DNA of 64,000 bases, from assembly GCA_963787105.1 (NCBI GenBank), contig CAWBBU010000018.1, forward strand, positions 64,082 to 128,081, in the 5' to 3' direction. Positions 37,151 to 59,690 of this stretch are shown piece by piece. The notes under the pieces were generated by a model. The model was not told the DNA's origin, did not search any database, and worked only from the letters and a program-made list of their open reading frames with translations. Made by a program: the position numbers and the translations under genes. How positions within the stretch are numbered: position 1 is the stretch's first letter; each line of letters starts with the position of its first letter. Origin of the DNA: an uncultured Bacillota bacterium (GTDB lineage: Bacteria; Sysuimicrobiota; Sysuimicrobiia; Sysuimicrobiales; Segetimicrobiaceae).

Positions 37151-37160
37151 GCCCGTCACC

Positions 37161-40285: not shown

Positions 40286-40299
40286 AGAATCGGTCCGCG

Positions 40300-41724: not shown

Positions 41725-41832
41725 CCCCGTGCGGCCGGCCCCCTCGCGAACCGACCACAGCCCCGTTTGATGACTCAGACCATGCCCGACCCGTCTCTCC
41801 GGAACAGCGCGGAGCCCCGCGCCATCCTCTCT

Positions 41833-41844
41833 GAGAACGTTCTC
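41833..41844. promoter_or_regulatory. LacI-type operator candidate, site 1: perfect palindrome GAGAACGTTCTC
   Basis: Read directly (ctGAGAACGTTCTCta), 109 nt upstream of the isomerase start codon (41724, minus strand). The central CG and AACGTT core fit LacI-family operators. Confidence 0.6.
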
Positions 41845-42084
41845 TACTTCGGTAACCTACGAGCCCCTCCTCCTGGGAGCGGGCGGACATCAGCGGACGC
41901 GCGAGTCGGATATCCCAACTGCCAAGGCGGCGCGAGCGGCGACATGCTGGTGGTCGCGGGGCGACGGAAACGGGCCTTCCCGAGATGGTCGGTAACCCGA
42001 CCCGTGCTGCCCGCTGCGCTGACGCCGGTCCCTCCCGACGGGGAACCCTTGTAGGCACTCCGAACGGCCGGACGGCACGGGACG

Positions 42085-43013: not shown

Positions 43014-43129
43014 ATGGTCGGTGCCCTCCTTGAGTTTCCGGCCGATGCATTCTAGTCTACCGTCCTGCGCGTCCGCGGTGTATCCTTCGCACATCCGGTC
43101 GACGCTCAGAACGGCGGAGGACAAGCACA

Positions 43130-44137
43130 ATGGGACAGACACCCACGGTGGCCATGCTGATACCATACCCGACGCGGGCGGAGGTACTCACCGCGAACAT
43201 GGAGCGCCGCCTGGGGTCGATCGCCCGAGTCGTGTCAACGCCGGAGCAGGATCCGGATCGATGGGACCTCCGGGCGATGCTGACGGGTGCGGACGCCTGC
43301 CTGACGGGGTGGGGCACGCCGGCCCTGTCGGATGAACTGCTGGCCAGTGTGCCGACCATCAAGTTCGTGGCGCATACGGGCGCCAGCATCCGTCGCCTCG
43401 TTCCCCGCGCCGCGATCGAGCGCGGCCTTATCCTCTCACACGCGTCGTCGATGATCGCCGACGCCGTGGCCGAGATGGTGGTGCTGCAGGCGCTGCTGCA
43501 TGTGCGAAGGCTGCCTGACATGGACCGTGCGATCAAGCACGGGGCCGACTGGCAGGAGACCTTCGATCGATACCTCGGCAGGCAGCTCGGCGCGCTGACG
43601 GTCGGCATCGTCGGAGCCAGCCACGTGGGGAGGGCCGTCATTCGTCTCCTCAAGGCGTTTGGCAGTCGGGTGCGCGTGTACGATCCCACGCTCACCCAGA
43701 TCGAGGCGTCGCGGCTCGGGGTCGAACCGGTCGCGCTTGCCGAGTTGATGCGCTCATGCGATATCGTCAGCCTCCACGCACCCGTGCTGGCCGAAACCAT
43801 CGGAATGATCGGCGCCTCCGAGCTGGCGCTTATCCGCAACGGCGGGCTCTTTATCAACACCGCTCGGGCCGCATTGGTCGATAACACCGCGCTCCTCAGT
43901 CACCTCCGCGAGGGACGTTTTTCGGCCGCGTTGGACGTCTTCGAACAGGAGCCTCTTCCGGATGACAGCGAGCTCCGGCAGCTGCCGAACGTGGTACTGT
44001 CTCCCCACGCCGGCGGCCATACCGTTGACACCCAATTTCGACAAGGAGAAGCGATGGTGGCCGAACTGGAGCGGTTCTTCCGGGGAGAACCGCTGCGATT
44101 CGCTGTTGATCCCGCCGCGCTCTCGATCATGGCCTGA
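43130..44137 (+). CDS. D-isomer-specific 2-hydroxyacid dehydrogenase family protein
   Basis: 335-aa ORF with GGAGGA upstream. GIVGASHVGRAVIRLLKAFGSRVRVYDP (NAD site), ...SLHAPVL..T..MI and LSPHAGG are present. Confidence 0.8.
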   Translation: MGQTPTVAMLIPYPTRAEVLTANMERRLGSIARVVSTPEQDPDRWDLRAMLTGADACLTGWGTPALSDELLASVPTIKFVAHTGASIRRLVPRAAIERGLILSHASSMIADAVAEMVVLQALLHVRRLPDMDRAIKHGADWQETFDRYLGRQLGALTVGIVGASHVGRAVIRLLKAFGSRVRVYDPTLTQIEASRLGVEPVALAELMRSCDIVSLHAPVLAETIGMIGASELALIRNGGLFINTARAALVDNTALLSHLREGRFSAALDVFEQEPLPDDSELRQLPNVVLSPHAGGHTVDTQFRQGEAMVAELERFFRGEPLRFAVDPAALSIMA

Positions 44138-44211
44138 ATCGTTCGCCGAGGCGGTAAAGAGCATAGGCAATGCAGGAATTCCATATGACCCGTCGAACCA
44201 GCGCCCGAGAG

Positions 44212-44225
44212 TGAGAACGCTCTCA
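44212..44225. promoter_or_regulatory. LacI-type operator candidate, site 2: TGAGAACGCTCTCA
   Basis: Read directly. The 16-mer GTGAGAACGCTCTCAC is palindromic in 7 of 8 pairs and shares the GAGAACG half-site with sites 1 and 3. It lies 93 nt upstream of the sugar-binding protein ATG 44318. Confidence 0.55.
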
Positions 44226-44317
44226 CAATGGCCAGATATGGGTTCGAGGGGTCCATCGGCCAGGCGGTAAGCTCAGAAGGATCACCACAGCCCGTGGTTC
44301 CGGGGAGGTGTCGCAAT

Positions 44318-45580
44318 ATGAGATGGGTGACGTGTGTGATTGCAGCGGCCGTGATGGTCGTGTCTCTACCGTTTGCGGGAATGACGGCATCGCCGGTGGT
44401 CATCACGTCCTGGAACGGTGTGGGACCGCCGGAAAATGTCATCTTGTCCCAATTCACCAGGGACTTCAACACCAAGTACGCGGGGCAGATCCAGGTGACC
44501 GAGAACGTCACGAAGTGGGACACGCTGTACTCGCAGATTCTGACGGACTACCGGTCGGGCAATCCGCCGGATGTCTTGACCTTCGAGACGTCGGCGCTGC
44601 CGCAGTACGTGCACTTCGGCGTCCTGCAGCCGGTGGGCCCGCTGATGGCGCAGGCCGGTTTGAAGCAGTCAGATTTCGTTCCGGCAGTGTGGCGAAGCAC
44701 GTTCATCGGCGGTGTCCAGTACGCCGTCCCCCTCGACGTACATCCGTGGGGATTCTTTTACAACCGCAAGCTCTTCCAGGCGGCAGGTCTACCCGATCGC
44801 GCGCCGCGGAACATGGCGGAGTTTCTGAGCGACGCGCAAAAGCTGACCGTCGCCGGTACCGGCGGGGCACCCGACCAGTACGGATTTGGATTCAACTACA
44901 ACGGCGCGAATCCGAGCCGGCTGATGATCTCGCTGCTGGCGCAAAAGGGCAAGAACATCCTGTCGCCGGATAACAAGCGCGCCGTGTTCGACACCGCCGA
45001 CACCCGGGAAGTGCTGCAGTTCCTCTACGACCTCGTCTACAAGTACAAAGTGGTGCCGCAGCGCGAGACCGACGCGGTCGGAGACTTCAAGCGCGGCGCG
45101 ATCGCGATGCTCGTCACCGGCCCGTGGGAGATCCCAGACTTCAAGGGCGTGTCGGGGCTCGACTTTGCGACCGCCGCGATGCCGGTCTTTTACAACAAGC
45201 CCGGCGTGTGGGGCGACGCGCACGACCTGGTGCTGTCGAAGACAAACTCGCCCGAGCGCCAGAAGGCGGCGATGGAGTTCGCCGCCTACATCAGCAGCCG
45301 GGGATACGAGTGGACCACCCAGGCGGGGCACCTGCCCGTGCGCGAGGACGTCATCAACAACCCCCAGTTCAAGACGCTCGGGTACTGGCAGCCACTGGTC
45401 GCCGAGGAAAGTTACATGACGGTCTATCCGCCCATTGACCAGTTTTCTGAGATGTTCGGCCAGGACCCGACCGCGCCGCTTGTGAAGATGACGGAGTCGA
45501 TCCTGCTCAATCAAGGCGTCCATCGCAGCGGCGGTCACGCAGGCGCAGACCGAGTTCAACCGGTGCTCGCGCAGAAGTAG
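44318..45580 (+). CDS. ABC sugar transporter substrate-binding protein (family 1, CUT1-type)
   Basis: ATG 44318 with signal-like MRWVTCVIAAAVMVVSLPFAG. It shows the typical family-1 pattern (ITSWNG..., PDVLTFE, GPWEIPDF). The last 25 or so codons read better with a compensated frame excursion (see findings). Confidence 0.85.
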   Translation: MRWVTCVIAAAVMVVSLPFAGMTASPVVITSWNGVGPPENVILSQFTRDFNTKYAGQIQVTENVTKWDTLYSQILTDYRSGNPPDVLTFETSALPQYVHFGVLQPVGPLMAQAGLKQSDFVPAVWRSTFIGGVQYAVPLDVHPWGFFYNRKLFQAAGLPDRAPRNMAEFLSDAQKLTVAGTGGAPDQYGFGFNYNGANPSRLMISLLAQKGKNILSPDNKRAVFDTADTREVLQFLYDLVYKYKVVPQRETDAVGDFKRGAIAMLVTGPWEIPDFKGVSGLDFATAAMPVFYNKPGVWGDAHDLVLSKTNSPERQKAAMEFAAYISSRGYEWTTQAGHLPVREDVINNPQFKTLGYWQPLVAEESYMTVYPPIDQFSEMFGQDPTAPLVKMTESILLNQGVHRSGGHAGADRVQPVLAQK

Positions 45581-45626
45581 TGGCGCGCATGTACGAAGAA
45601 CCGCGCGCGCTGCGAAAGGCCACGCG

Positions 45627-46550
45627 GTGATCAGCAACGGGGAGGCGCGGATCGGGGTCGATCCGCGCCTCCCTACCCGTCGTAGGACTTCGCCGTTCCG
45701 ATCGGCGTGGGCGTGGGGGATGCTTGCGCCCTACCTCATTTGCCTCGTGCTGTTCTTCCTCGTGCCGTTCTTTTTTGCCGTCGCGATCAGCTTCACCCGA
45801 TGGCAGATCATCGGGCAGCCCGTGTTCATCGGGTTCGCGAACTATCTCCGCGCCGCCCAGGACCCGTCGGTGCGGCAAGCCATTGGGAACACGTTTTATT
45901 ACATGGCGCTCATGACGTCGACGCTGATGATCCTGGGACTCGGGCTGGCGCTGCTGCTCAACGCGCCGGTGCCGGGGCGGTATCTCGCCAGAACAGTCGT
46001 CGTGATGCCGTACGTGATCAGCGTCTCGGTCATGGGGATCCTCTGGCGTTGGATGTATGACCCGAACTTCGGCATCATCAACTACTATCTGGGCCGTCTC
46101 GGACTGCCGCGGTTATGGTGGCTCACGGACACCGTCCAGGCGATGCCGTCGATCGTCATCGCGGACTGGTGGTGGATCGCCAGTTTCACCACGGTGGTCT
46201 ACCTCGCCGGGCTCCAGGCGATCCCACGGGAGTTGTACGAGGCCGCCGAGGTCGACGGGGCGTCGGCGCGGAGCAAGTTCTGGCACGTGACACTCCCGGG
46301 CCTCCGTCCGGTCACGCTCTACGTGCTCATCCTCAACACGATCACATCGTTTCAAATGTTCGGCGAGTCGTTTGTGATGACCCAAGGCGGTCCGCTCGGC
46401 ACCACCACCACGCTGACGTATAAACTCTACGACGCCGGATTCTTCGATCTCCAGCTCGGCTACGCCGCCGCCCTGTCGGTGGTGTTTCTCATCGCCATCG
46501 TGGCCCTGACCGCCGTGGAGTTCCGGGTGCTCAAACTTGCTGGGGACTGA
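45627..46550 (+). CDS. ABC sugar transporter permease (MalF/UgpA-like)
   Basis: 307-aa ORF. AWAWGMLAPYLICLVLFFLVPFFFA and the EAA-loop region YEAAEVDGASARSKFWHVTLPGLRP. Confidence 0.85.
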   Translation: MISNGEARIGVDPRLPTRRRTSPFRSAWAWGMLAPYLICLVLFFLVPFFFAVAISFTRWQIIGQPVFIGFANYLRAAQDPSVRQAIGNTFYYMALMTSTLMILGLGLALLLNAPVPGRYLARTVVVMPYVISVSVMGILWRWMYDPNFGIINYYLGRLGLPRLWWLTDTVQAMPSIVIADWWWIASFTTVVYLAGLQAIPRELYEAAEVDGASARSKFWHVTLPGLRPVTLYVLILNTITSFQMFGESFVMTQGGPLGTTTTLTYKLYDAGFFDLQLGYAAALSVVFLIAIVALTAVEFRVLKLAGD

Positions 46551-47409
46551 CGCCGTCTCGTCCCGTTGGCTGACGCCTGCGCGGGTGCGGCGCGTGGTGT
46601 TGACGTGCCTGATCGCACTGGTCATCGTCGCCTACGCGGGGCCGACGCTGTGGCTGGTGTCGACCTCCGTGACCGAGGAGGGGCGTGTCTTCACCCGGAT
46701 CCCGCAGTGGATTCCCCATCCGATCACCATCGCCAACTACCAGTTCGCGTTTCTCACGTATCCGTTGGGACGATGGTTTGTGAACAGCGCGGTCGTCTCA
46801 TTGGTGACCGTGGCGTTGTGCGTGCTCATCAACGTGCCTGCGGGGTATGCGTTTGCCCGGCACCGCTTCCCCGGAGATGGGATCCTCTTTTGGCTCACGC
46901 TGGCCTCGGTCATGGTGCCGGTGCAGGCCTACTTGGTTCCCATGTACCTGCTCTTTACGCAATTCGGGCTGATCAACACGCTCACCGGATTGATTCTGCC
47001 GTTCCTGTCGAACGGGTTCGGCGTATTTCTGATGCGGCAGTTTATCCAGCAGATTCCACCTGAACTGGAAGAGGCGGCCATCATTGATGGCGCGTCCCGC
47101 GTGGTCGTGCTGTGGCGGGTCGTTGTGCCGCTGATCACCCCAGCGATCGCGACGCTCGTGATCTTCCGCTTCATGCAGAGCTGGAATTCGTTCGCGTGGC
47201 CGCTGGTCGCGGCGAGCAGCGACAGGTCGATCACCTTGCCCGTGGGACTGGCGCTGCACGTGTTCGGCGTGGTCGGCTCCGCGTCCGCGCAACCGCGGTT
47301 CGGCCTCTCGATGGCCGCATCGTTTGTCTCGATGGCGCCCGCGATTGTGGTGTTCCTACTGCTGCAGCGCTACTTCGTTGAAGGCATGGCGTCGTCGGGG
47401 CTCAAGTAG
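46537..47409 (+). CDS. ABC sugar transporter permease (MalG/UgpE-like)
   Basis: 290-aa ORF overlapping the previous gene by 14 nt. EAA loop: LEEAAIIDGASRVVVLWRVVVPL. Confidence 0.85.
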   Translation: MLGTDAVSSRWLTPARVRRVVLTCLIALVIVAYAGPTLWLVSTSVTEEGRVFTRIPQWIPHPITIANYQFAFLTYPLGRWFVNSAVVSLVTVALCVLINVPAGYAFARHRFPGDGILFWLTLASVMVPVQAYLVPMYLLFTQFGLINTLTGLILPFLSNGFGVFLMRQFIQQIPPELEEAAIIDGASRVVVLWRVVVPLITPAIATLVIFRFMQSWNSFAWPLVAASSDRSITLPVGLALHVFGVVGSASAQPRFGLSMAASFVSMAPAIVVFLLLQRYFVEGMASSGLK

Positions 47410-48232
47410 CGAGGCCGGCATTCACGCCCTGTCCTGCATCGACCCAGGGCACCGGATGAGCAAACCGAGCGGCGTACACGCGCGTGAGATGGTCGACCGC
47501 CAGAGGAAGCAGCTCGAGGCCGCGCCCCTCCCCCTGGAACGAAATGGTCAGGTCCTGATGGTAGCCGAGCGCCCCGAGCGCCCATAGGAGACCGTACCAC
47601 CACAGCGTTCCGTCACCCGGATAGGTCGTCTGTTGGCGGCCGAGAAGAGACCGTACGTCCGTCGCGTGGACGTGTCCGATTCTCCGATTGAGCACATACG
47701 CCGACCGCACGGGATCCTCTCCGACCAACACGGGCGCCGCCGTGTCGAAGGAGGCCTGGATCCAAGGAGTGGCCGCCGCATCGATCAGCGCCCGCACACG
47801 CACGACCGACCCCGGCAGCGGCTCGTTCGCCAGCAGGAGGTGAACACCGGCCTCTTTGGCCTGCTGAAGAAACGTCCACTGAGGGTCCCCGGTCGGCGGG
47901 AGCATGCGCATGCGCTTCGCGCCGAGCGCCCCCGCGGTTGCAAGCGCCGCACCTGCCGGCTCTATGTCGCCGTGACCGGATGGGAACCGTAGACCGCTTC
48001 CATAAACGACCGTACAACCCGCCCGATTCGCAGCGTCGCGGGTCGCCGCGGCGTCTTGCGTCCACTCGGGGTCGACCTCAACGCCCCGGCACCCGAGCGC
48101 CGCCGCCTGTTGCAGAAACTGCTCGATCGTGACTCGGCCGGACCGTAACTCCGCGGCCGCGACGGCCGTGTGGACGGCAAGGCGCATCCGGGAGCGCCCC
48201 TGAGCGGCGGGACCGGACGACGTCGTGTTCAT
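47402..48232 (-). CDS. Xylose-isomerase-like TIM-barrel protein
   Basis: ATG 48232 overlaps the upstream BNR gene stop (ATGA). RGVEVDPEW..., AKRMRMLP, VHLLLANEP, IGHVHATD pattern. Confidence 0.6.
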   Translation of the reverse strand: MNTTSSGPAAQGRSRMRLAVHTAVAAAELRSGRVTIEQFLQQAAALGCRGVEVDPEWTQDAAATRDAANRAGCTVVYGSGLRFPSGHGDIEPAGAALATAGALGAKRMRMLPPTGDPQWTFLQQAKEAGVHLLLANEPLPGSVVRVRALIDAAATPWIQASFDTAAPVLVGEDPVRSAYVLNRRIGHVHATDVRSLLGRQQTTYPGDGTLWWYGLLWALGALGYHQDLTISFQGEGRGLELLPLAVDHLTRVYAARFAHPVPWVDAGQGVNAGLAT

Positions 48233-49185
48233 CCCTCGAGCGCCGCCTGGTCGAACGTGAGGTGCGCGATCGCGAACCGTCGATCGGTATAGAGCAGATG
48301 CAGCATGCCGTCCGAGCCCTGGATGATGGCGGGATACGAATATTCCCCCGGCTCGGTCTCGACGTCGCGGGCGACGCGCCACGACTTTCCCCGGTCCTCG
48401 GACACCGCGAGTGTTAGGGGAGACCGATCGTACAACGCATTGTTGAACGCCAGCACCAGGCGGTCATCGGGCGTGCGCACCATGTCCACGCCGGCGTCCG
48501 GGTTAGGGAGCGCGATCGGTGTCGGCGATGACCACGTGCGACCGCGATTGGTCGACTGTGCCCGCCACAGCGGCCCGCGGCCCTGCGTCCGCATCAGGCA
48601 CACCAGCTCGCCGTCCGGAAACTCGACGATCGTGGGCTGCTCGTTCCCCGGCGTGGACCGGATGGGCATAGAGGTCTCCCATGACTGGCCTTCATCCCCG
48701 GAGATCAAGCAGACCGAGGCGTGCACACCCGTGTCATCGTACAGCGGGAGTAAAAGCTCGCCGTTCGACAGGACGCACGGCGTGTTCCGAGGCATCAACC
48801 CCGTCTCGTCGCGAAGCACGTGCCGGGGCCCGAACGTCACGCCGCCGTCGGTTGACACCCGGTACTTCAGCTTGCACGCGCCCCAATTGAGAACCTCGTA
48901 CATCACGGAGTAAAACAGTCGGAGTTCCCCGGGCCTCACTGAGAACAGCACGGGATTGCCGACCGTGCACCCCTCGGTCTCCACGAGCACAACGGCTTCC
49001 GTCCAAGTTCCCGTGGACCGCCGAAAGAACGCACCGAGGATTACAACGTCGGACGCGTACTCGTGCGAGCCCCCATACCACGCAGCCATGAGGTCACCGC
49101 TGGGCAATTCGCACACCGTGGCCGCGTGCACCGAAGGGTGGTCAGGAGAATCGCCGAACACGACGCGTTTCTCCCATGTCGCCAT
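48229..49185 (-). CDS. BNR/Asp-box repeat sialidase-fold (GH33-like) protein, no signal peptide seen
   Basis: Intact 318-aa ORF with four Asp-boxes read directly: STDGGVTF, SGDEGQSW, STNRGRTW, SEDRGKSW. Confidence 0.8.
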   Translation of the reverse strand: MATWEKRVVFGDSPDHPSVHAATVCELPSGDLMAAWYGGSHEYASDVVILGAFFRRSTGTWTEAVVLVETEGCTVGNPVLFSVRPGELRLFYSVMYEVLNWGACKLKYRVSTDGGVTFGPRHVLRDETGLMPRNTPCVLSNGELLLPLYDDTGVHASVCLISGDEGQSWETSMPIRSTPGNEQPTIVEFPDGELVCLMRTQGRGPLWRAQSTNRGRTWSSPTPIALPNPDAGVDMVRTPDDRLVLAFNNALYDRSPLTLAVSEDRGKSWRVARDVETEPGEYSYPAIIQGSDGMLHLLYTDRRFAIAHLTFDQAALEG

Positions 49186-49249
49186 GCTTGTCGCTCCATC
49201 GACATGATGTCACCAGGACGATCGGGTGCAGGTAGACAACCCCCGCATA

Positions 49250-49261
49250 GAGAACGTTCTC
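49250..49261. promoter_or_regulatory. LacI-type operator candidate, site 3: perfect palindrome GAGAACGTTCTC
   Basis: Read directly (taGAGAACGTTCTCac), 65 nt upstream of the BNR gene start (49185, minus strand). It is identical to site 1 over the 12-bp core; the 16-mer matches the reverse complement of site 1 at 15 of 16 positions. Confidence 0.6.
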
Positions 49262-49680
49262 ACTGTCTCGATGTGATCCCTTTCGCCTCTCCCAATCCGC
49301 CGCTGCCGCGCCGCTGAGCCGTCCATGGCCGAATCGCGAAACAACTCGTCGTCCATGGCAGTCGCATGGTCGTGTTATTGGACAGTGCGGCCTTCGTGAG
49401 CAATCGCTGGGTCGTCATGGCGCCGGCATCTTCTTCGGAGCGGCAGCGAGAACAGCGTCCTTGGTCTGCTGAGCAGCGACGGCCGTCGTCGTCCCGTGTG
49501 ATATGTAGCCAGCAGGCGTCAACTCGATCGTGCGCTCTTCCATCCTCCAAAAGGAGGGGATGAGGAGACCGTTTGCTACTCGTAGGTCCGGCACGACCTG
49601 CTACAATTGCGGCGCAAGGGTCGCGGGTGTACGAACGGGATCGTTGCTCCGTTATCAACCGACATAGGGGAGGGATACTG

Positions 49681-49953
49681 ATGGCCGAAAGCAAGCTTGC
49701 CGCATTGGCCCCAAAATTCAAGGAAAATCCCGGGCTGAAAGACCAGATTAAGAAGGCCACGAGCCTTGATCAGGTTGTTTCCATTATGAACTCTGCGGGT
49801 GTCCAGATCACGAAGGCCGAACTCCTCAAGTCCGAAGCGCAGAGAGTCCTCGCGCTCAGCGACGCGCAACTGGAAGCCGTTGTCGTCAGCCATAGCTATA
49901 CGACCGACACGTTTATGGGCTGCGCCACGTGGGTGTTTCAGTGCTGCGGCTGA
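49681..49953 (+). CDS. lanA: Lanthipeptide precursor with Nif11-type leader (90 aa)
   Basis: ATG 49681 (GGAGG about 10 nt upstream) inside ORF 49573..49953. Sequence: MAESKLAALAPKFKENPGLKDQIKKATSLDQVVSIMNSAGVQITKAELLKSEAQRVLALSDAQLEAVVV-SHSYTTDTFMGCATWVFQCCG. It has Nif11 leader architecture and a Ser/Thr/Cys-rich C-terminus, and sits beside lanM. Confidence 0.8.
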   Translation: MAESKLAALAPKFKENPGLKDQIKKATSLDQVVSIMNSAGVQITKAELLKSEAQRVLALSDAQLEAVVVSHSYTTDTFMGCATWVFQCCG

Positions 49954-50004
49954 TTTCTTGCCGCACGAGTTTTGAATCTGTGCGATAACGCACTGTGACG
50001 TTTC

Positions 50005-50060
50005 GAGTTGCGGGCTTCTAGCGGTCGCGTCCGTTGCGATTTTCTAGGAGCCCGCAACTC
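50005..50060. terminator. Long hairpin at the convergent lanA/lanM junction (17-bp stem, 1 mismatch, 22-nt loop)
   Basis: GAGTTGCGGGCTTCTAG (50005-50021) pairs with CTAGGAGCCCGCAACTC (50044-60), read directly. The left arm contains the lanM stop, and the right arm encodes its last residues. No clear U-tract. Confidence 0.4.
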
Positions 50061-53000
50061 AGGCAGCCTGCCAGGACGTCGACATCCTCCATCGTCAGTG
50101 AGACTAATCCAATGCCGGACGTGCCGGTAAACAGGCCCGGCAAGAAGATGTGCCCCTCCGCCGGCGAGAACAGCCGATAGGCACCACCGTGGCGCTCGGC
50201 ACGGCCAATGCGTCTCGTCAGGATCGCCTCGGCGGCAGCACCCCAGTGCGTGCCCAACCCATTGGCCGCAGCGATCTTCAAGATCGTGATTTTTCCAAAC
50301 GCTCCACAGCACACCTGATCGACCGCGACATCATCGCGTACGGTAGTGGTCAGGGCCACCTCGAGTTCCTGTTCCACCTCGGCATCCCAGAGGCATGTGT
50401 GTCGCAGGCATAGGCGTGCGAGTGCGATACCCGGAGCCCCGTGGCACCAGCTGTTCATGAACTGTGTCGAGTGTTCCGTCGTCCGGAAGTCGGGCCAATT
50501 GCCGCGTGGCGGCGAGAACTGCGAACGCTCGTAGGCCAATCCCCTCCGGGCCGACGTGAGGTACCGGGTCGCCTGGGTGGCTCGATGGAGCCTCGCGAGC
50601 GCGGCGGCGATCCCTCCGGCGCCGTGAGAGAAGCCCGTCAGAGATTTCTTCGCGTCCATACTTGGCCACGCATCATTCTCCGACTGTTGGGTCACCAGAT
50701 GGTCGCCACAGGCGCCCGCCAGCGCGAGCAGGTCGCGAGGGCTCTCTCCAGCGGCCTCTCTGACACGTGCCAACGAGAGCAGCGGTCCGACTAAGCCGGC
50801 ACAGCCGGCGATGATGTCAAGACGGTTGTCGGCGTGTATCCGCTCGACCGTAATCCGATCGGCGAGCGCATGCGCTACCGCACTATAGCTCCCAGACGGG
50901 GGCCGCAGGCCCAGCCGTTCAAGCGTCAGGAGGCTGAGGATCAGACCCCCCGTGCCCGCAAGCCCGAGTGGTTGGTCGCGAACCCAGCGAAACGCCGCAA
51001 ATGCGTCATCAGACTCCAGGGTTTCCAACACTGTTGACATCGACTGGCGGGCATCCTCACGAAGCCGCGCGGCCTCCGCGGCGTGGCCGGGATGCGCATC
51101 TAGGTGCTGTGCGAGTACCGAGAAGAACAGGGCGATGCCGCTGCGCCCGCTGTAGAGCGACGGCCCGACGATCCCAAACCGAAATCGCTCTTGATCCTCG
51201 GCGAGATCCAAGCCGAGCCACGCAGGACGACCCCGTGAACCGCGCAGAATGCGCTGTTGCAGTTGTGTCGCCAAGCGACGCGCCTCCGTCAACCGCCGCT
51301 CCTGGGAAAGCGGGCGAGCGGCTCCGCCGGTCGTCCCCACAATCCCTGGCGAGGTGGCGTCTTGACCGTCGTCGCTCGGCCGCGTGGATTGCAGCTGACT
51401 GGCCTCGATCGCACCGCGAATGAGCTGGAGCTGAAAGTCGATATCCGCCTGTTCGAGGCGCTCGACCCGTCGTCGGCTGGCAGCCAAGCCGGACGCGCGC
51501 ACGAAGCCGGGAATCGGTTCCATGCCGCCGGGAAGCCGCAGCACGTCGCTATCGATCGCCTGCTCGAAATACGGAATATCGAGCGTCTCCATCTGCCGCA
51601 GTTCTGATTCGAAGATCGGCCAGTCGAACGGTTTCTCGTTTGGAATCAGATACTGGCGGCTGAGCTGGTCCAGCTTCACGCCGCGCGCGACCGCAGTGTG
51701 TAGCGCGTCCGGCTCCAGTGCCTGCAGTTGGATGGTCGCATAGACCTGCGTGGGCCGCACCACCACGCGACGTGGAAGTCCGGCGAAACGGTCAAGAAGC
51801 GCGCCGGGCGCAAGGAGGTCGTCCTTGTGACGCAAAAAGTGCTGCATCTGCACGGCGAACCCCTCGCAGAGGGATGACGCGAACTGCTCGAACAGACCCG
51901 GCCGGGTGCCCGTGACCGGAGAGCTTGTCGGCGTTGCGGCGGGTTCGTCGACGCGTCCCCAATGCATGCGGTCGCTGTTCATCGCGACCCACCCATCCCG
52001 CGTCGTCGTCTGGTTCAGCCGCGCGACGCCGAGGGCGCTCGAATCGATGGCGCGCATGCGCCCACCGACCGCCATGAACCGCCACTGGGGCAACAAGCCG
52101 ACGCGCAAGACCGACTGCCCCAACTTCTGCCGGAGATCATCGGGGCCAGCGTCCCGCCGCTCGATCGGGTCATCTCGGTCGCCCTGCAACAGTGTTTCTA
52201 CATCGATCAGCACAAGCTGGTCGCCGTTGGCGATTACATTTTCGTTGTGGCAGTCGTTACAGCCGAGCATGTACAGCACCGCGAGAAGATGGCCCGCGTG
52301 GCGGTAGAATCTCTCGAGTTCTTGATCGCTCTCGCACGGCCGATGATCCACAAATTCCATAAACCCATAGTCCTCGACCGGCAGAACCTTGAGCACACGG
52401 AACACTGGCGCGCCGCCGAGCTCATTCAGATGATGCAGGAAGGCGTGATACGCGCGGTCGACGCCCATATGCCTCGGCTTATAGACGACCTTCCAACGGT
52501 CCCCGCACGTCGTGGAAAAGTCGCAGGACCGCCACGGACCGTCCGCCCCGGTGCGGGTCGCTCAGATTGAGATCGATCTGGCTCAGGAGCGCGTCCGGTG
52601 GGCACCCCGAAGATCTCAAAGAGCACCGCCCTGTTCTGGTGAACCCGTTCGAGCAGTTCCTGACTCGACTCGAGCCACTGATGGACCGCCGTCGACCACA
52701 CACGTCCGAGGACCGGGTACGCACTCAGGATCTCGGTCAAACCATCGCGACGGTGATGCTCGATGAACGCCAGATACTCGTCGGTCGCCGGAGGGCTGTC
52801 GTCGGGAATCTCACCGCTCAGACGCGCCAGCAACGTGCCGCCAACGCCGCGGTGCTCGGAAAATAGCTCGAACACGGCATGTTCGCCGAGACGCGCGAGC
52901 CTCTCAAGCAGGACATCCGAGAGCGCGCGAATGGCTTGCGGGGCGATCCGGTTCAGCACGGCCGGGGGCAGTCCCCGTTGCAGCAACTGCTGTGCCCAGT

Positions 53001-53388
53001 TGCCGATAGGCCGCCATAACTCCTCAAACGGTCGGCGGATCCCGTGGCGGACGGCGGCATCCCCATTCGGCGGGGGCGGTGCGTCCCTACATGCGCGGCG
53101 CAGCTGATCCAGGAGGGGCAGCCAGCACGGCTCGCCGGGCGGCGCATCCACCGGAGGGTTCACTGCCCAGGCCGCATGTTGGAGGGTGTTCCCGCACCAC
53201 TGCAGCCGCTTCTCGAAGTTGGCGCTCTGATGCGGAGCCACCGCGGCCCGCCATGCCGCCAGGCGCTCATCGTCTACCGATGTTGACCCGCACCCTCGAT
53301 CGCGGGCTTCCTGTAGCCGTTCTCGCAGCGTCCAGCCTTCGCGTATGATCAGCCGAGGGCTCGCGGGCTCCAGATCTAACCGGCCCAT
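50018..53388 (-). CDS. lanM: Class II lanthipeptide synthetase LanM (about 1120 aa), two apparent frameshifts
   Basis: N-terminus is ORF 52426..53388. A short stretch lies in ORF 52479..52724 (LLSQIDLNLSDPHRGGRSVAVL). The rest is ORF 50018..52468 (WKVVYKPRHMGVD..., DCHNENVIANG, VLIDVETL dehydratase motifs). LanC-like cyclase motifs are GFSHGAGGIA, NSWCHGAPGIA and VCCGAFG. Breaks are near 52590 and 52522. Confidence 0.85.
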
Positions 53389-53500
53389 GTCTGCCGTTGG
53401 TCCTCCACGCTGCGCTGTGACCGGCTTTCGTCGGGATGGAGAGGCAGTCCTCCGCGAGCGGGCGGCCCTGATCGTGCGCTAAGCCTTGATTTACAAGGGT

Positions 53501-53578
53501 TGGTGGAGACGACGGGATTCGAACCCGTGACCCCCTGCTTGCAAACAGGATACGCGAAGTAGTGCCCCGTGCTCCTCC
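53501..53578 (-). tRNA. tRNA-like element: convincing 3' half (GCA anticodon-like loop, T-arm, acceptor, encoded CCA), non-canonical 5' half
   Basis: Minus strand: ...CCTGTTTGCAAGCAGG-GGGTC-ACGGG-TTCGAAT-CCCGT-CGTCTCC-A-CCA (53550 to 53501). The upstream 28 nt (GGAGGAGCACGGGGCACTACTTCGCGTA) gives 6 of 7 acceptor pairs but no normal D-arm. The anticodon loop is 6 or 8 nt depending on the fold. It is probably a tRNA-Cys 3' fragment or pseudo-tRNA. Confidence 0.4.
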
Positions 53579-53759
53579 GTGTACATAGGTCTTGTCCAGT
53601 GAGGATTTCCGCGTGGCGCAGTGCTTGCGTGTGCTGGCCCTGTGCAGGCCAGTTTCGGTCCCGTAGATTAGCAAAGGATTAGCAGAACGTGTGGCGCTGT
53701 GGCAACGGATCCATGATGCAAACGGGGGGCCCTGACGCAACGGCGACCGAGGAGGATGT

Positions 53760-53924
53760 CGATAAGGCGACCGAGGCGCAGTCCCCCGCGCGCTCCCGGA
53801 ACCGCCCCGCCACGCCGACGATCTGCGCGCGGCAGCCCGAGAGGCGGGCGTAGACCCCTGCCCGCGTCTCGGCGATGAATCCCGCGCCGACGATCCCGAC
53901 GTTCACCCGCGGTGGCGCGGTCAT
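53760..53924 (-). pseudogene. N-terminal fragment of a Gfo/Idh/MocA-type oxidoreductase (truncated)
   Basis: ORF 53679..53924 begins MTAPPRVNVGIVGAGFIAETRAGVYARLSGCRAQIVGVAG (Rossmann N-terminus), then loses protein-like character after about 50 aa. Confidence 0.5.
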
Positions 53925-53933
53925 CGCATCGCC

Positions 53934-54611
53934 TTAGGTCTCTTGGAAATCGTGGCGGGCATCGAGGTGGACAATGCGGAATCGTCTCTCCAATGAGCCA
54001 CCAATCAGGGAGATCGCGTAGGTGATCACAAAGTACATGCTGGCAACAATGGACAAGACGAGGAAACTGTTACGAGTCGTATCGCGCACGAGCAGGCCGG
54101 TCTGGGTCAATTCCGCATATCCGATGATCGATGCCAACGAGGAGTCCTTCAGCGTACCGATATACACACCAACGGATGGCGGCAACATAACTCGGACTGC
54201 CTGAGGACCGATGACATAGCGCATCGTTGCAAGGAATGCCATCCCAGACGCAGAGGCCGCCTCCCATTGTCCCACTCCCACGCTCTCGATCCCCGCACGC
54301 ACAATCTCCGCCATGTTGGCGCTGGCCACTGCGGCAAGCGCCATCGTTGCCGCGGCAAAGGGAGGCACGCTAACGCGCGCGATCAGCGGGATTCCGTAGA
54401 ATGCGAAAAACAACAGCACGAGCAGCGGAATCGAACGAAATCCTTCCACGTACGCGATTGCGCCGACGCGCACAGCTGTCCAGCGGGATGTCCGAGCCAG
54501 ACCGACAAGGATCCCGATGAGCCCGCCCAAGAGGAGAGCCAACCAGCTGATCCACAGCGTGATCCCAGCCGCCCTGACCAGCGTCCCAAAGTATCCGAAG
54601 ACAACCATCAT
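53934..54611 (-). CDS. Polar amino-acid ABC transporter permease (HisM/GlnP-like)
   Basis: 225-aa ORF with 4-nt overlap to the upstream permease. It has His/Glu/Gln/Arg/opine-type permease character (EGFRSIPLLVLLFF, GQWEAASASGM). Confidence 0.85.
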   Translation of the reverse strand: MMVVFGYFGTLVRAAGITLWISWLALLLGGLIGILVGLARTSRWTAVRVGAIAYVEGFRSIPLLVLLFFAFYGIPLIARVSVPPFAAATMALAAVASANMAEIVRAGIESVGVGQWEAASASGMAFLATMRYVIGPQAVRVMLPPSVGVYIGTLKDSSLASIIGYAELTQTGLLVRDTTRNSFLVLSIVASMYFVITYAISLIGGSLERRFRIVHLDARHDFQET

Positions 54612-55243
54612 CTAAATTGGCGGGCGTCGAGCGGAGAGCCAAACACACGTTGGCCGACTATTAGCCGCGCAACATTCACTATTTGGCACAGCACAATGTA
54701 CACAAAGCCGGCCACGAGGAACGTTTCAAAGAAGCGAAACGTGGTGGAGCCGGTAACCCACATCCAGTTTGACAAGTCGAATACCGTCACCACCGACGCC
54801 AAGGACGAACCTAAAAGCACGCCGATAAACATATTCCCCAGCGCCGGGTAAATCGCGCGGAAGACTTGAGGGGCGACAATGTGACGGAGCGTTTGGAAGC
54901 TCGTCATACCCTGAGACGCTGATGCTTCGTACTGTCCTTTGGGAATCGCCTGCAGGCCGCCTCGAAAGACCTCCGTCATGTAGGCACCAGAGTGTAGCGT
55001 AAGACTGATCACGGAGGCAGTGAAAGCGGTGATGCGCCATCCGGCTTGGCTGGAACCGAAATACACGAGATAGAGCAGGATCAGCAGCGGGATGTTCCGC
55101 AAGACCTCAACATAGGTGGCACCCACCGCTCTCAGAACTCTCAAACGGTGGGTTCGCGCGAGGGCTCCGAATACGCCCACCACCATGCTGAAGACTATTG
55201 CCAAGATACTGAGCCACAACGTCGTGCCGATTGCCCCGGGCAA
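54608..55243 (-). CDS. Polar amino-acid ABC transporter permease (HisQ/GlnP-like)
   Basis: 211-aa ORF. YVEVLRNIPLLILLYLVYFG and PKGQYEASASQGM (EAA-like loop). Confidence 0.85.
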   Translation of the reverse strand: MPGAIGTTLWLSILAIVFSMVVGVFGALARTHRLRVLRAVGATYVEVLRNIPLLILLYLVYFGSSQAGWRITAFTASVISLTLHSGAYMTEVFRGGLQAIPKGQYEASASQGMTSFQTLRHIVAPQVFRAIYPALGNMFIGVLLGSSLASVVTVFDLSNWMWVTGSTTFRFFETFLVAGFVYIVLCQIVNVARLIVGQRVFGSPLDARQFR

Positions 55244-55298
55244 ACTTCCAATGTATGGAAGAATTGCCCTCAGATTAATTGATAGCCCATTGAATCCT

Positions 55299-56172
55299 CT
55301 AGGCGAGCTTTACCCCGGGATAGTCGTTCTTGAACCAGCGCTTCCAAACTCCTACGTTCATGCCGGAAATATTGAACCCGCGGACCCACACATTCACCAC
55401 GCGCCACCAGTCGAAATCGCCTGCTGGCAGCCCGATACAAATGTCTTCGAAGGCCCACGATCCCGCGACGCGATATTTGCCCGGATTCTGCCGCATCTCC
55501 TCCGCAATGGAAAAACCGTCATCGGCCAGAGCGTCGATTTGCCCTCCCTGCAAAGCGAGAAACTCGTCGATATTCTTGGTGAAGACTTCAAGTTTTGCAT
55601 TCGGCAGGGTAAGCGGCACCAAGTCATAGGCCGTACCACCACGTGCAACGCCAATCTTGATGCTCGGTTTGTTCAAGTAGTCTACTTTTTGCAGATCACG
55701 CCGGCTGTTCAAGACGGCGAAATCGTTGTGGGTTGTTACGTACGGGTCACTGAATGCGATCACGGTAGAGCGTTGAACGGTATTGGTGAAGTTTGAGATG
55801 GTTATGTCCGCCTTCCCGGTCTGAAGTGCGGCCACGCGCCCGGGACCGTCCAGCTTAACCCACTCAATATTGACCTTCAGGGCTTTCGCGAACGCACCCG
55901 CGATGTCGATTTCGTATCCTTCGAACGTGCCAGCAGGAGTGAGCAGGATTTCCACGGCAGTCCATCTCCCGCCGTTGCAACGCGAAGATCGTGCCACTCT
56001 TCAGAACCCGATTGACGGCATCGGAAGTCTGTGCGTCACTGCGCGCTGCTAGCGCTCCACCAGCGACCATAGCCGCGCCAGCACCCAGACCCACAGGAGC
56101 CAGCATGCGAGATAGTCCACCGGCAACGGTCACGCCCAGCGTACGAGAGAACAAATCGCGCCGTCCGAACAT
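55299..56172 (-). CDS. Amino-acid ABC transporter substrate-binding protein (family 3), one or two apparent frameshifts
   Basis: N-terminus MFGRRDLFSRTLGVTVAGG (Tat-like) in ORF 55864..56172. A third frame reads LRVATAGDGLPW. The body is in ORF 55299..55997 (GYEIDIAGAFAKAL...GKADITISNFT...). Breaks are around 55945-55985. Confidence 0.75.
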
Positions 56173-56509
56173 CTACCATCCCTCCTTCGCGATCGGATAC
56201 GATTGATTGACCCGACGCAACAGCGACGTATCCCTGAAACGGTACCCATCGTACGCGGTTGCCTTAGCCGGCTCCATGCTCGGGGGATATTGGCCATGCG
56301 CGACGCCACGCTGCGTAGGCCAATTCCCTCGCCCGAGCGACGATGCTGGAGTCGCAACACATCCCCCACCTCGCCGCTTGGCGTGGCGCCTGCGCCATGT
56401 TGTGAAATCTATCTTCACTTTCTTTCTGCAAATCGCATTTCCTCTCGCGTGACGTCCAGGCAACGGCCGCCAGCACTCGATGAGCCGGCGCACGCGAGCG
56501 CCCATCAGC

Positions 56510-57930
56510 CACCAACCCGGGGTGTTTCGGGAAGCGGGAATCCGCCGCGCGCGCGTTCGTAGATCCCCGCAACACCGAGCACGAGATCATCGTGCAGATG
56601 TCGTCCCACCGAGCTGCAGGCCTACCGGCAGACCCTCCTCGCTGAGCCCGCACGGCACCGAGACGGCGGGGTGTCCGGTGACGTTGAACATCCAAGTGTT
56701 AGCCGCGTGGAGATCTGGGGTCTCGAGCTCGCAGCCGTGCCACAGATAGGTCATCGCGCCAAGGGGCTTGGCGGTGATGGGCGTCGTCGGCAGCACGAGT
56801 AGGTCGACGCGCTCGAACAGCTCGGCATAGGCGGCGCCGATGTGCCCTGAATCTCGCTGAAACGATCCATCACTTTGCGCCGCTTGCGCCGGAGATTGGC
56901 CCTAATGTAGGCCCGGTAAGATCCCGGCGTCGGCGCCTTCCGCATCATACATTTCCCACTCGTTCAGCAGGGTGATCTCGTCCCACAACGCGATGTCGAA
57001 CATCGGAAGCCTCACCGACTCGACGAAGATGCCGGCCCCGGCACCCGCCAAACTCTCAACTGCCGCCTCCACCCGGGCACCTACGTCCGGCTCGGACCGA
57101 ACTGTCCCCCGCTCACGTCGAAGCCCAGCCGCACCGCCCCGAAGTCGGGGTGCAACACCGCAGACAACGCAGCGGGTGGCGGTGCGTCAAGGGACGTCGG
57201 GTCCAAGGGATCGCGGCCCGCGAGCACCTCTAGCATGAGCGCGGCGTCTTCGACCGTCCGCGCGAGGGGGCCGACGTGTTCGAGCGCCGTGGCCATACCG
57301 AAGACGTCGCCATGCTGGCTGACGCGACCGTAGGTCGGCTTGAGCCCGACGACGCCGGTGAACGCGGCGGGGATACGGATCGAACCGCCGAGATCGGTGC
57401 CGACGCTCCCATAGCTCGTGCCGATCGCAAGGGAGACCGCAGAGCCGCTGCTCGATCCCCCGGGCGTGTAGGTCGGGCCGCCACGGATTTCGGGCCGTGG
57501 GCAGGCGCGCGCTATCCGCGTTGGTGCGGGACATCCCGCTCCCGACGTTCGCTTTTGCGACCACGATGGCACCGGCGGCGGTCAGGCGCTGGACGCAGGT
57601 CGCGTCTTCCTGGCGAGCCGGCGCGTAGTTCGAAAGGCTCACGGTCCCGACGGTCGTGCGGGTCCCGCGCATCAAAAACGCGTCCTTCACCGTCACGGGT
57701 ACGCCGTGGAGCCGACCGAGTGGGCGGCCAAGGCTAACATCCTCATCGGCGCGGCGCGCTGCTTCGCGGGCCTCGTCGGTGGGCGCCGAGAGATGCGCAT
57801 GATGGCGGGGTCAAGCACCGCGGCACGCGCGAGACAGGTGTCCACGAGTTCGGTGGAGGACACCTCTCCGCGCCGGATCAGGTCCGCCGCGACGGCAGAG
57901 AGAACATTCGGTCCTGCGCCACCTCTTACC
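56510..57930 (-). pseudogene. Amidase-signature amidase, decayed paralogue of 25096..26523 (many frame changes)
   Basis: Fragments lie in ORFs 57187..57696 (VKDAFLMRGTRTTVG), 57081..57572 ([50 protein letters not shown]) and 56587..56796 (LPTTPITAKP...NVTGHPAVSVPCG...GLPVGLQL). By eye they are about 70% identical to the intact amidase in the signature block. Confidence 0.75.
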
Positions 57931-58010
57931 CACCTCCCGTCCGGGGCACATCGTAGACGCGCCGCACTACAGGCAGCGGACCGCGCGACGTACGTCTGAG
58001 CCCGGTCCGG

Positions 58011-58801
58011 CTACAGGTCGCGAAGATCCGGACGGTCCACCAGTTCGATGCGCACGCCATCTGGATCGCGGATGATGCCGATGCCCCCAAACCGGTGCCA
58101 GCCGGCTTGGGGCTGTCGGGTTCCGGGGTCACACCCTGCGAAGCGAACCGGTCGAGGGCCGCGTCAACGCTCTCGACGCGCAGCGCGATGTGGCCGAAGA
58201 TGTTGCTCGTAGTGTCGGGTGTCGGCCGGTGCAGTAGCTCCAGCACATCGTACCCATAGTGGTAATATAGAATCGTCTGCTGACGCGACGCCACGTACAT
58301 CTCCTTGAGGACCTTCATGCCGAGGGGCCGTCCATAGAAGTCCTTCGCCGCCGCGAGATTGTTCGCACGCAGCGAGTAGTGGTCTAATGACTGAATAATC
58401 CCCGGCGCGATCGGCGCCATCCGGAAGTCGGGGTTGCGCTGGATGAGCTCGACCCGGGCGCCGTTTGGGTCGCGCACAAAGGCGAGGCGGCCGACGCCCG
58501 AGCCGGCGACCTTGGGCGCATCCAACGCCTCCGCCCCCGTGTCGACCAGCATCTTATAGTCGTCGTCGAGCGCGTCTGACAAAAAGGCCACGTGGGTGAT
58601 CCCGAAAACCTCGTCCCGCGGCGGGCGAACGGCGGTGCAGCGACTCGATCATACCGCCAGTGATCTGGCGAATACCACGTCGGTCTGGCTCGATGGGATG
58701 ATCCTGCGGGAGATTTCCTTGGCGCCGAGCACGTCTCGATAGAACGCGAGCGTCGTGTCCAGGTTCCGTATCACAATGCCGTAGTGGTTAATCTAGATCA
58801 T
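58011..58801 (-). pseudogene. Two-domain VOC (glyoxalase/bleomycin-resistance/dioxygenase) protein with in-frame stops and frameshifts
   Basis: Reading from ATG 58801: MI-TAG-INHYGIVIRNLDTTLAFYRDVLGAKE..., then a TGA and a frame change, then ORF 57926..58591 (LAFVRDPNGARVELIQ; LDHYSLRANNLAAAKDFY...FGHIALRVES). The tail GIGIIRDPDGVRIELVDRPDLRDL lies in another frame and ends at 58011-58013. Confidence 0.65.
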
Positions 58802-58859
58802 GACAGAGTCTCCTTCGCGGTCCCCGCATCACGCGAGATTGAGCGTTCGCCGTCTCTCG

Positions 58860-59690
58860 TCAGGACACCTGCGCGCTCCTTGCTGACGGCGTCTTCGCAT
58901 CGCGGAGGACCCGAGGAGTGACCGTGATCTCGGGGATGTGCATCCGCTCCGGGCAACTCAGCGGCCAGATGAAGATGTCGGCGATGTCAGACGGCCGCAG
59001 CGTTAGCGCCACGTTGCTCTTCAGACGGTGACACCAGCTTATGCCCTCAGACGGTCGTATTGACCGGTCCTGGGCTAACCGAGGTCACGCGAATGCCGGA
59101 ATTGCGGTATTCCTCGATGCAGGGCTCCCCATCCGCGCCCGGGCTCCGTACGGTGAGGACCTGATCGAAACCGTCGGGCGAGCATTTGGCCGAATCCTTC
59201 ACGTGCACGCACCTGACGCTGTTCCGGAGCTGTCTCCACGTGTAGACGCCCGACTCGCCGTAGCGGTACGTGTGCAGGGTTTCCAGAGGATCCCGAGTGG
59301 GTCGCTCGCGCCGCGGGCGTACAGATCGACAATGCGGTTGGACGTTGAAAAATAGTCGCGGGTCTCAAGAAGGCTCATGACACCATGCGTGCGGGTAACC
59401 TCGGCGATTTGGGTCAGTCCCGCGGCGATGGCCTCGATTGTCGCGTCGAAGTCCTGATCCTTGGGAATCGGACCCCCAAACACGCGCATGAAACGGCCCC
59501 GAGCGCCTCGGCAAATGAAAGGTTCTGCCGGGTAGATTCTGCGTTACCGACGAGACGCTCGCCCTCGTCAAGCGAGTTCATCCGGACGCTGATGCCGAAG
59601 TAGGGTCGAGGGTTGGCGCAGTGCTTGGGTCTAAGCAGCAGTCTTTCGGCCCTGTCCATCTCTGACGATGGCGTGCAGACCCCGACGGCT
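58860..59690 (-). pseudogene. Remnant of a xylose-isomerase-like TIM-barrel gene (5'-truncated, several frame changes)
   Basis: The pieces ...FGISVRMNSLDEGERLVGNAESTRQNLSFAEALGA / MRVFGGPIPKDQDFDATIEAIAAGLTQIAEVTRTHGVMSLLETRDYF / LGILW..LHTYRYGESGV...VHVKDS lie in different frames. Confidence 0.4.

Follow-up and report, generated by a model that had tools for sequence, protein, structure and literature searches.

A two-gene class II lanthipeptide module with a Nif11-type leader lacking a double-glycine site, probably an accessory islet at a tRNA-Ala remnant

How a Nif11-type leader comes off when no peptidase-containing ATP-binding cassette (ABC) transporter (PCAT) lies nearby is a modest but testable question. 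It was raised here by two genes, lanA and lanM, in a 64,000-nucleotide stretch of contig CAWBBU010000018.1 (assembly GCA_963787105.1, positions 64,082 to 128,081) from an uncultured bacterium; this whole stretch is referred to below as the window. From sequence comparisons we favor, with good confidence, the reading that positions 49285 to 53500 of the window are a two-gene class II lanthipeptide module, that the module is an accessory islet at a tRNA-Ala half, that the breaks in lanM are consensus errors, and that any maturation would depend on unlinked factors. The initial annotation had proposed a class II lanthipeptide pair consisting of a 90-amino-acid (aa) precursor and a LanM of about 1120 aa, tail to tail and 64 nucleotides (nt) apart, with lanM frame-broken and in need of repair. 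These proposals held. Both LanM domains and the Nif11 leader scored above curated cut-offs, the coordinates and sizes were right, LanM has 1122 codons after the removal of two bases, and the breaks are two single-base insertions that are unique to this assembly. The features of the two genes are as follows.

49681 to 49953, plus strand: lanA, 90 aa, with a Nif11-type leader at about residues 1 to 71 and a conserved core at residues 72 to 90
49894 to 49950, plus strand: predicted core peptide SYTTDTFMGCATWVFQCCG, 19 residues with five Ser/Thr and three Cys
50018 to 53388, minus strand: lanM, class II lanthipeptide synthetase of the ProcM-like "CCG" type, 1122 codons once two inserted bases are removed
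51563 to 52719, minus strand: dehydratase domain of LanM (kinase-like, DUF4135, PF13575), with the motifs DPHRGG, VYKPR, DCHNEN, and IDVE
50084 to 51172, minus strand: LanC-like cyclase domain of LanM (LANC_like, PF05147; 142.8 bits), with the motifs SHG, WCHG, and CCG
52600 to 52602, minus strand: frameshift 1 of lanM, one extra C in GTGCC[C]ACC
52520, minus strand: frameshift 2 of lanM, one extra C in CTGCGA[C]TTTTCC

The ATG of lanA is preceded by a GGAGG Shine-Dalgarno sequence 8 nt upstream, and the G+C content of the gene alone is 55.7%. Its product matched Pfam Nif11 (PF07862; 32.3 bits; cut-off, 23.8) and TIGR03798 leader_Nif11 (37.8 bits; cut-off, 32.3), the latter over profile positions 1 to 65 of 68, with the match ending just ahead of the expected glycine positions. 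No other Nif11-type open reading frame (ORF) was present in the 64-kb window, and each related locus likewise had one precursor. Alignments of eight family members gave the core consensus [SER]YTT[DS]T..GC.T[WY]V..CC. The leaders all end in ...LSD(A/S)(E/Q)LE(A/S), after which five to six variable residues lead into the conserved core, and GG, GA, or GS was found at the leader-core junction in none of the eight (examples of leader ends are LEAVVVSH, LESATIRNA, and LEAAPVSL). With 8 clusters among 5.8 billion proteins, the family is rare, and a search for its core motif in the searchable literature returned only irrelevant matches. What is new at this locus is the precursor family, possibly together with a variant maturation route.

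As deposited, lanM consists of two overlapping ORFs, at 52426 to 53388 (320 aa) and 50018 to 52468 (816 aa). The 816-aa ORF matched TIGR03897 lanti_2_LanM with 620.7 bits (positions 172 to 929; cut-off, 304) and the 320-aa ORF with 43.2 bits (positions 2 to 131). The dehydratase profile PF13575 was similarly divided, with 268 bits over profile positions 82 to 376 in the larger ORF and positions 1 to 38 in the smaller one. In an alignment with seven relatives, the dehydratase motifs were invariant, as were the SHG motif and the columns C981 H982 G983 and C1026 C1027 G1028, which contain the zinc ligands Cys981, Cys1026, and Cys1027 (numbering of the repaired protein). The motifs also align to LicM2 (6ST5; E value, 7e-64), and CylM (5DZT) was matched with an E value of 2.5e-24. 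LicM2 has CHG at the position of the CCG found here. Zhang and coworkers are said to have described, in 2012, CCG in place of CHG as the three-cysteine zinc site of ProcM-like enzymes. Within its own clade, LanM has relatives at 67% and 58% identity, and the next relatives, from Cyanobium, Pseudanabaena, and metagenomic bacteria (one labelled Bacteroidota), are 43 to 45% identical. The best match was 45% identical in a collection of GTDB representatives and again in a scan of JGI metagenomes.

The two genes are convergent, with 64 nt (49954 to 50017) between their stop codons. Three features of this arrangement may bear on transcription.

49945 to 49965, plus strand: small hairpin over the lanA stop codon, in the RNA fold of 49940 to 50075
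50004 to 50061, strand not assigned: long, near-perfect intergenic hairpin (inverted repeat 50005 to 50021 and 50044 to 50060, 94% complementary)
53389 to 53500, minus strand: lanM leader region, 112 nt between the tRNA remnant and the ATG of lanM, with GGAGGA 13 nt 5' of the ATG

The small hairpin is a putative terminator. The long hairpin takes in the last 14 codons of lanM and folds with z-scores of -4.2 on the plus strand and -4.5 on the minus strand, a stability reached by none of 200 shuffled sequences; it is likely to act as a bidirectional terminator or transcript stabilizer. The lanM promoter presumably lies in the 112-nt leader region.

By homology, a ProcM-like LanM with a three-cysteine zinc site would bind the Nif11-type leader of its single LanA, phosphorylate Thr and Ser residues of the core, and eliminate the phosphate. 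The residues dehydrated would be Thr74, Thr75, Thr77, Thr83, and possibly Ser72. Addition of Cys81, Cys88, and Cys89 to the dehydro residues could then form up to three (methyl)lanthionine rings; one speculative pattern is Thr77-Cys81 and Thr83-Cys88/89. Transcription of lanA and lanM would be convergent, with the strong hairpin shared as a bidirectional terminator, and the module would be lodged directly after the CCA of the displaced 3' half of tRNA-Ala(UGC), in tandem with a second island. Maturation is the weakest step of this scheme, in which leader removal and export, if any, would proceed via unlinked host factors.

The convergent pair was found in four unrelated contexts with no common third gene, in agreement with its description in the initial annotation as a minimal two-gene unit. 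Besides the window, it recurs in L001, from a peat-type metagenome of the JGI, and in L002 and L087, from two NCBI metagenome-assembled genomes (MAGs). The recurring pairs have intact LanM proteins of 1092 and 1109 aa (67% and 58% identity), in addition to the pair of L087, and Candidatus Eremiobacteraeota is the name attached to a cluster-mate of the L002 LanM. The genes that flank the pair in L001, L002, and L087 bear no relation to one another (SBP_bac_1, an enolase C-terminal fragment, a GDSL lipase, and a TrwC fragment). In L087 (GCA_030154725.1), a 69-aa fragment of a TrwC relaxase is located at 2240 to 2449, 260 nt upstream of the lanA homologue, a hint that conjugative elements may have carried the module.

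One further ORF adjoins a lanM gene. In L002, an ORF at 3 to 641 ends one base before the lanM start and gave a subthreshold match to the retropepsin-like aspartyl protease family PF13650 (22.9 bits; cut-off, 24.3). This ORF could encode a linked leader protease in that genome; no counterpart was found in the window or the other loci. A conserved third gene was considered and ruled out by this result and by the unrelated flanks.

The initial annotation regarded a Nif11/LanM system outside the cyanobacteria as unusual, and this was an overstatement. Such systems outside the cyanobacteria were already noted by Haft et al. in 2010 (PMC2887384), and our genome scan detected Nif11 leaders with ProcM-like LanM proteins in Proteobacteria, Acidobacteriota, Actinomycetota, Planctomycetota, Chloroflexota, and other phyla. 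Thus, the phylogenetic setting is not surprising.

The absence of genes for LanT, LanP, and LanFEG, as stated in the initial annotation, was confirmed for the window by two approaches. When the 45 largest ORFs with coding-like codon-position G+C were scanned against Pfam, genes for a C39 peptidase, an ABC exporter, a subtilisin, or ABC-2 immunity were not among the matches; what the scans found were sugar, peptide, and amino acid importers, metabolic enzymes, three distant regulators, TldD/PmbA, a group II intron, and a serine recombinase. In addition, profiles of the C39 domain and of C39 plus transmembrane domain (TMD) were derived from six LanT proteins that are encoded in related loci and verified by Pfam, and these were searched in six frames. 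Nothing was found in the window or in L001 to L004 even at an E value of ≤10, and the same C39 profiles gave clear matches in 30 of 80 ProcM-like loci from reference genomes. The ORFs with TldD/PmbA metallopeptidase domains are located at 13287 to 16081, 35 kb from lanA, and nothing links them to it. TldD/PmbA are normally housekeeping genes.

The missing double-glycine site in the LanA leader fits the missing LanT, since PCATs with C39 domains cleave after GG, GA, or GS motifs (PMC10885120), and Nif11 leaders normally end in such double-glycine-type motifs (PMC2887384). An iterated profile run over all fetched loci yielded 107 Nif11/NHLP-type precursor ORFs. A C39 domain was encoded within the fetched flank in 23 of 44 loci with GG-type precursors and in none of the loci with GG-less precursors (0/8 by a conservative count, to 0/11). 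The association was significant (Fisher P value, 0.006 to 0.0014), though it was drawn from a small number of loci, the GG motifs were called by eye, and some of the contigs were short; these limits count against the favored reading. The GG-less loci were the lanA clade, Pseudanabaena L005, Roseovarius L009, Actinomycetota L012, Calothrix L023 and L025, Pyrinomonadaceae L030, and L061. Examples of GG-less precursors end in ...ELEGCCASTG (Roseovarius lutimaris) and ...LEAVATTASTNT (a Pyrinomonadaceae MAG).

Because the leader has no double-glycine site and no C39 peptidase-transporter is present nearby, leader removal and export, if they take place, would have to rely on unlinked host factors. 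Proteases encoded outside the cluster have precedents among ribosomally synthesized and posttranslationally modified peptides (RiPPs), namely class III and IV lanthipeptides (AplP-like), microcin B17, and klebsazolicin (TldD/E) (PMC10885120). The locus resembles these systems in having no protease in the cluster and a leader end without a conserved site, which would fit trimming by a general protease (PMC10885120). The difference is that the likeness is one of analogy, with no protease tied to LanA. A more specific proposal, which we put forward tentatively and consider less probable than its negation, is that the lanA family is a PCAT-independent branch of ProcM-type systems, in which the Nif11 leader lost its double-glycine site along with the dedicated peptidase-transporter. 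An unlinked host protease may then cut at the nonconserved leader-core junction; alternatively, the modified peptide may retain its leader and act within the producing cell or its envelope instead of being exported as a bacteriocin. The occurrence of the GG-less, C39-less pattern across unrelated phyla suggests a recurrent alternative maturation route, of which no description for GG-less Nif11 leaders was found in the literature examined.

The uninterrupted synthetase frame expected of a class II cluster was not found in the sequence as deposited. Three-frame translation showed that lanM spans three frames, with two +1 breaks about 80 nt apart and a 27-codon stretch, PPDALLSQIDLNLSDPHRGGRSVAVLR, in the third frame. 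Removal of one base at each break restored 1122 lanM codons with no internal stops. At frameshift 1, the extra C is missing from the related contigs L003 and L004, and the proteins P0122 and P0123 read EIFGVPPDAL across the site. At frameshift 2, the extra C is unique to the window in comparison with L003 and L004, and P0122 and P0123 read ...FSTT.G.RWKVVYKPR in frame. Slippage in a homopolymer at GGGG was considered for frameshift 2 and ruled out, as the comparison with P0122 and L003 places the extra base at GCGA[C]TTTT.

Clustered at 90% identity, the 816-aa product groups with the intact 1122-aa protein P0122, from another assembly, and with a differently broken pair of 482 and 609 aa from a third assembly. 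L003, which encodes P0122, shares 98.3% identity with the window across 19.6 kb; L004, which has its own, different lanM break, shares 96.7% across 10 kb. The repaired LanM and P0122 are 98.0% identical in amino acid sequence, with 22 synonymous and 22 nonsynonymous differences and a ratio of nonsynonymous to synonymous change (pN/pS) of 0.34.

Private indels, defined as non-triplet indels restricted to one sequence, were counted from three-way alignments, in which L003 was compared with the window and L004 at 49426 to 59504 and with the window and L085 at 40020 to 49284. At 49426 to 59504, the window had 27 such indels, L004 had 23 (its own lanM break among them), and L003 had 2; the window had 96 private substitutions in the same interval. 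At 40020 to 49284, the window and L003 had 3 each, and the 3 of the window are frameshifting indels in conserved genes of a sugar operon (at 45562, 45514, and 42991). The two lanM lesions amount to 0.6 per kb, inside the background rate of private indels in the window, so that assembly error is the likelier cause. We therefore judge it likely, from these alignments, that the lanM frame breaks are assembly (consensus) errors, and the gene is probably intact in the organism. The contig_NNNNN names suggest that the assemblies are from long reads.

It is unlikely that lanM has recently become a pseudogene through two real frameshifts, in a cluster that is dead here and an islet that is decaying. 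Such a reading would account directly for the deposited sequence, whose source record itself annotates products of 320 and 816 aa; the lanM of L004 is likewise broken, though elsewhere in the gene; and the neighboring island at 53.6 to 59.5 kb is full of frameshifts that could reflect true decay of accessory DNA. However, lanM has no stops and no further lesions once the two bases are removed, its pN/pS is 0.34, and each lanM break is private to one assembly. Furthermore, the private frameshifting indels of the window also hit the conserved sugar operon genes, and L003 is nearly free of private indels at 49426 to 59504 and encodes an intact enzyme. The share of indels in the window, 27 against 96 substitutions over 10 kb, is in our judgment more typical of sequencing error in long-read consensus than of bacterial divergence. 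For genome scanning, the lesson is that a frame break in an indel-prone metagenomic assembly should be compared with sibling contigs before the gene is called a pseudogene.

The boundaries of the islet were defined by two short-read contigs, L085 and L086, that lack it.

49285 to 53500, strand not assigned: lanA-lanM islet, 4216 nt, present in the window, L003, and L004 and absent from L085 and L086
53501 to 53545, minus strand: 3' half of tRNA-Ala(UGC), 45 nt from the anticodon loop to the CCA, with the islet starting at the next base

L085 and L086 match the window at 53775 to 53501 (86% identity) and at 49284 to 38562 (92.8% identity). The homology stops exactly after ...GTCGTCTCCACCA, and the position of the islet is filled by 253 unrelated nt, followed by the BNR gene; the 253-nt filler of L085 had no similarity to the islet. 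The tRNA-like fragment that the initial annotation placed beside the cluster is indeed present and could be narrowed down to the last 45 nt, on the 3' side, of tRNA-Ala(UGC). An intact tRNA-Ala in L003, at 2140 to 2215, has exactly the same 3' end; in that contig, the intact gene and the half-copy form direct repeats 7.6 kb apart. About 30 nt following the CCA are, as judged by eye, about 65 to 70% alike at the starts of the islet and of a second island, and are not found in the empty site.

Other assignments of the fragment were considered. ARAGORN found no complete tRNA in the window, and the fragment alone gave no stable tRNA fold. A match to the T-arm and acceptor of transfer-messenger RNA (tmRNA) in Rfam (25.3 bits; E value, 3e-8) was below the gathering threshold, and the tmRNA reading was rejected because the 45 nt are identical to the canonical 3' end of tRNA-Ala(UGC) in L003. 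ARAGORN also called a 97-nt "tRNA-Val(CAC)" over the tRNA-Ala half at 9792 to 9888 in L003, with no such call in the window, L004, or L085. The tRNA-Val call, made on the remnant, is most likely spurious, and the region folds no better than shuffled sequence.

The second island extends over about 53546 to 59599 of the window (2216 to 9842 of L003), between the intact tRNA-Ala and the 45-nt repeat in L003. It is 6 to 8 kb in size and, by this alignment, appears to separate the tRNA half from the intact gene. It encodes an amino acid ABC importer (SBP_bac_3 and two permeases), an amidase, and a glyoxalase, at a lower G+C content of 54 to 62%. In the window, 25 private frameshifting indels fall within 6 kb of this island, a density far above that found elsewhere, which could reflect either true decay or a consensus of very poor quality. 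The match between L004 and the window runs from 59504 down to 49426 (L004 position 10067), 255 nt 5' of lanA, beyond which L004 continues into unrelated genes (MlrC/DUF1485, an aminotransferase, and a peptide ABC importer) instead of the BNR gene and sugar operon. Either the DNA was rearranged at the edge of the islet or the assembly is chimeric at this junction.

The proposal that the islet was acquired is supported because L085 and L086 lack 49285 to 53500 and the insert starts right after the tRNA CCA. The arrangement agrees with tandem insertion of two cargo islands at tRNA-Ala. It resembles genomic islands at tRNA 3' ends in that the islet abuts the CCA of a duplicated tRNA 3' half, varies in presence among close relatives, and has a tandem neighbor between the intact tRNA and the repeat; it differs in the lack of an integrase and of a distal repeat and in its weak compositional signal. 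The initial annotation had described a segment of lower G+C, and the islet is indeed lower than the window (63.7% versus 66.4%), although the dip is marginal, with the left flank at 65.5% and the right flank, at 61.9%, lower still.

Several observations weigh against the favored reading. lanM is frame-broken as deposited, and the error explanation is probabilistic. Neither insertion lengthens a long homopolymer, the first turning CC into CCC and the second placing a C ahead of TTTT. The search for a LanT, protease, or immunity gene covered 64 kb, and such genes could lie elsewhere in the genome. A sigma-70 promoter scan found no consensus site. The islet contains lanA and lanM only, with no integrase; no second attachment (att)-like repeat was found near 49285 (12- to 16-mers with ≤2 mismatches); and its deviation in G+C is marginal. 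These last three points leave room for a deletion in the lineage of L085 and L086.

On that account lanAM would be ancestral at the site and not acquired. This seems improbable. In its favor, the 4.2-kb islet has no integrase and no direct repeat at the 49285 end, its G+C content is just 2 to 3 points under the window mean, and the tRNA half is found in both the occupied and the empty states. Against this, the islet boundary falls exactly at the CCA end of the tRNA 3' half, and in our judgment a boundary at a tRNA 3' end fits site-specific insertion, as in tRNA-targeted islands, better than random deletion. Moreover, the start of the islet resembles that of the neighboring tRNA-Ala island, the same lanAM pair occurs in unrelated contexts elsewhere (once beside the TrwC relaxase fragment), and the G+C content at third codon positions (GC3) is 0.74 in lanM versus 0.79 to 0.85 in the adjacent sugar genes.

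Among the closest known systems is that of the prochlorosins (ProcM/ProcA) and related cyanobacterial class II lanthipeptides with Nif11 leaders, which likewise combines a bifunctional LanM with a Cys-Cys-Cys (CCG) zinc site and a long Nif11-type leader that matches TIGR03798 and has an ...LSD.ELE.. helix. In contrast to the many precursors with hypervariable cores of that system, a single precursor is present here and its core is conserved; a double-glycine site is missing from the leader, and no PCAT is nearby; and the genes are convergent and belong to a high-G+C uncultured bacterium, not a cyanobacterium. Since the GG site, the many hypervariable precursors, and the PCAT are all missing from the 64-kb window, the locus was filed as a class II cluster with a ProcM-like enzyme and not as a prochlorosin system. 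A conventional prochlorosin-like system would, as in Prochlorococcus, have a LanT (PCAT) and maybe more precursors elsewhere in the genome, with this LanT cleaving the peptide and exporting it. Such a system seems very doubtful here. In its favor, the window covers 64 kb of a contig whose length is at least 128 kb, a C39 gene within 10 kb is missing from 21 of the 44 ProcM-like loci with GG-bearing precursors, and prochlorosins are known whose precursor genes lie at a great distance from the LanM gene (PMC7268733). Against it, all eight lanA family members lack, at the leader end, the motifs after which C39 PCATs cut (PMC10885120), GG-less loci never had a C39 nearby, and the lanA core is conserved, not hypervariable, with one precursor per locus.

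LicM2 (lichenicidin) and CylM (cytolysin) share with this LanM the two-domain architecture and the motifs DxHxxG, YKPR, and D.H.EN. They differ in their Cys-Cys-His (CHG) zinc ligands, and their identity to it is low. The LicM2 and CylM systems have short leaders that end in GG or GS and dedicated LanT and LanP genes.

Under the favored reading of an accessory module with an intact enzyme, the pair, if expressed, should yield a lanthipeptide scaffold without a characterized relative. With two genes, the module is about the smallest clonable unit for heterologous production, and an intact allele is available in P0122. The locus also appears to be a clean case of a biosynthetic module acting as a small cargo islet at a tRNA-Ala hotspot.

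Other features of the window were as follows.

61855 to 61990, minus strand: group II intron (RF02003; Rfam, 102.5 bits), with a reverse transcriptase (RT)/maturase ORF at 60171 to 61592, minus strand
62391 to 63947, minus strand: large serine recombinase, adjoining the group II intron
7707 to 10079 (790 aa), 6439 to 7446 (335 aa), and 11211 to 12242 (343 aa): ORFs without a Pfam match

Synteny between the window and L003 stops at 59599, and the intact tRNA-Ala of L003 is not in the window; a mobile element therefore probably broke into the tRNA-Ala island. The long ORFs at 6439 to 12242 have coding-like G+C and no Pfam match at an E value of ≤0.001, and they may be frameshift artifacts, spurious high-G+C ORFs, or uncharacterized genes. 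The operon beside the islet, at 36407 to 49185, encodes a BNR_2 sialidase-like protein (48229 to 49185), a xylose isomerase-like TIM barrel protein, a sugar ABC importer, 2-hydroxyacid and GFO/IDH dehydrogenases, a fucose isomerase, an FGGY kinase, and a CMP-sugar cytidylyltransferase (36407 to 37204). It looks like a locus for the utilization of sialic acid or fucose-type sugars.

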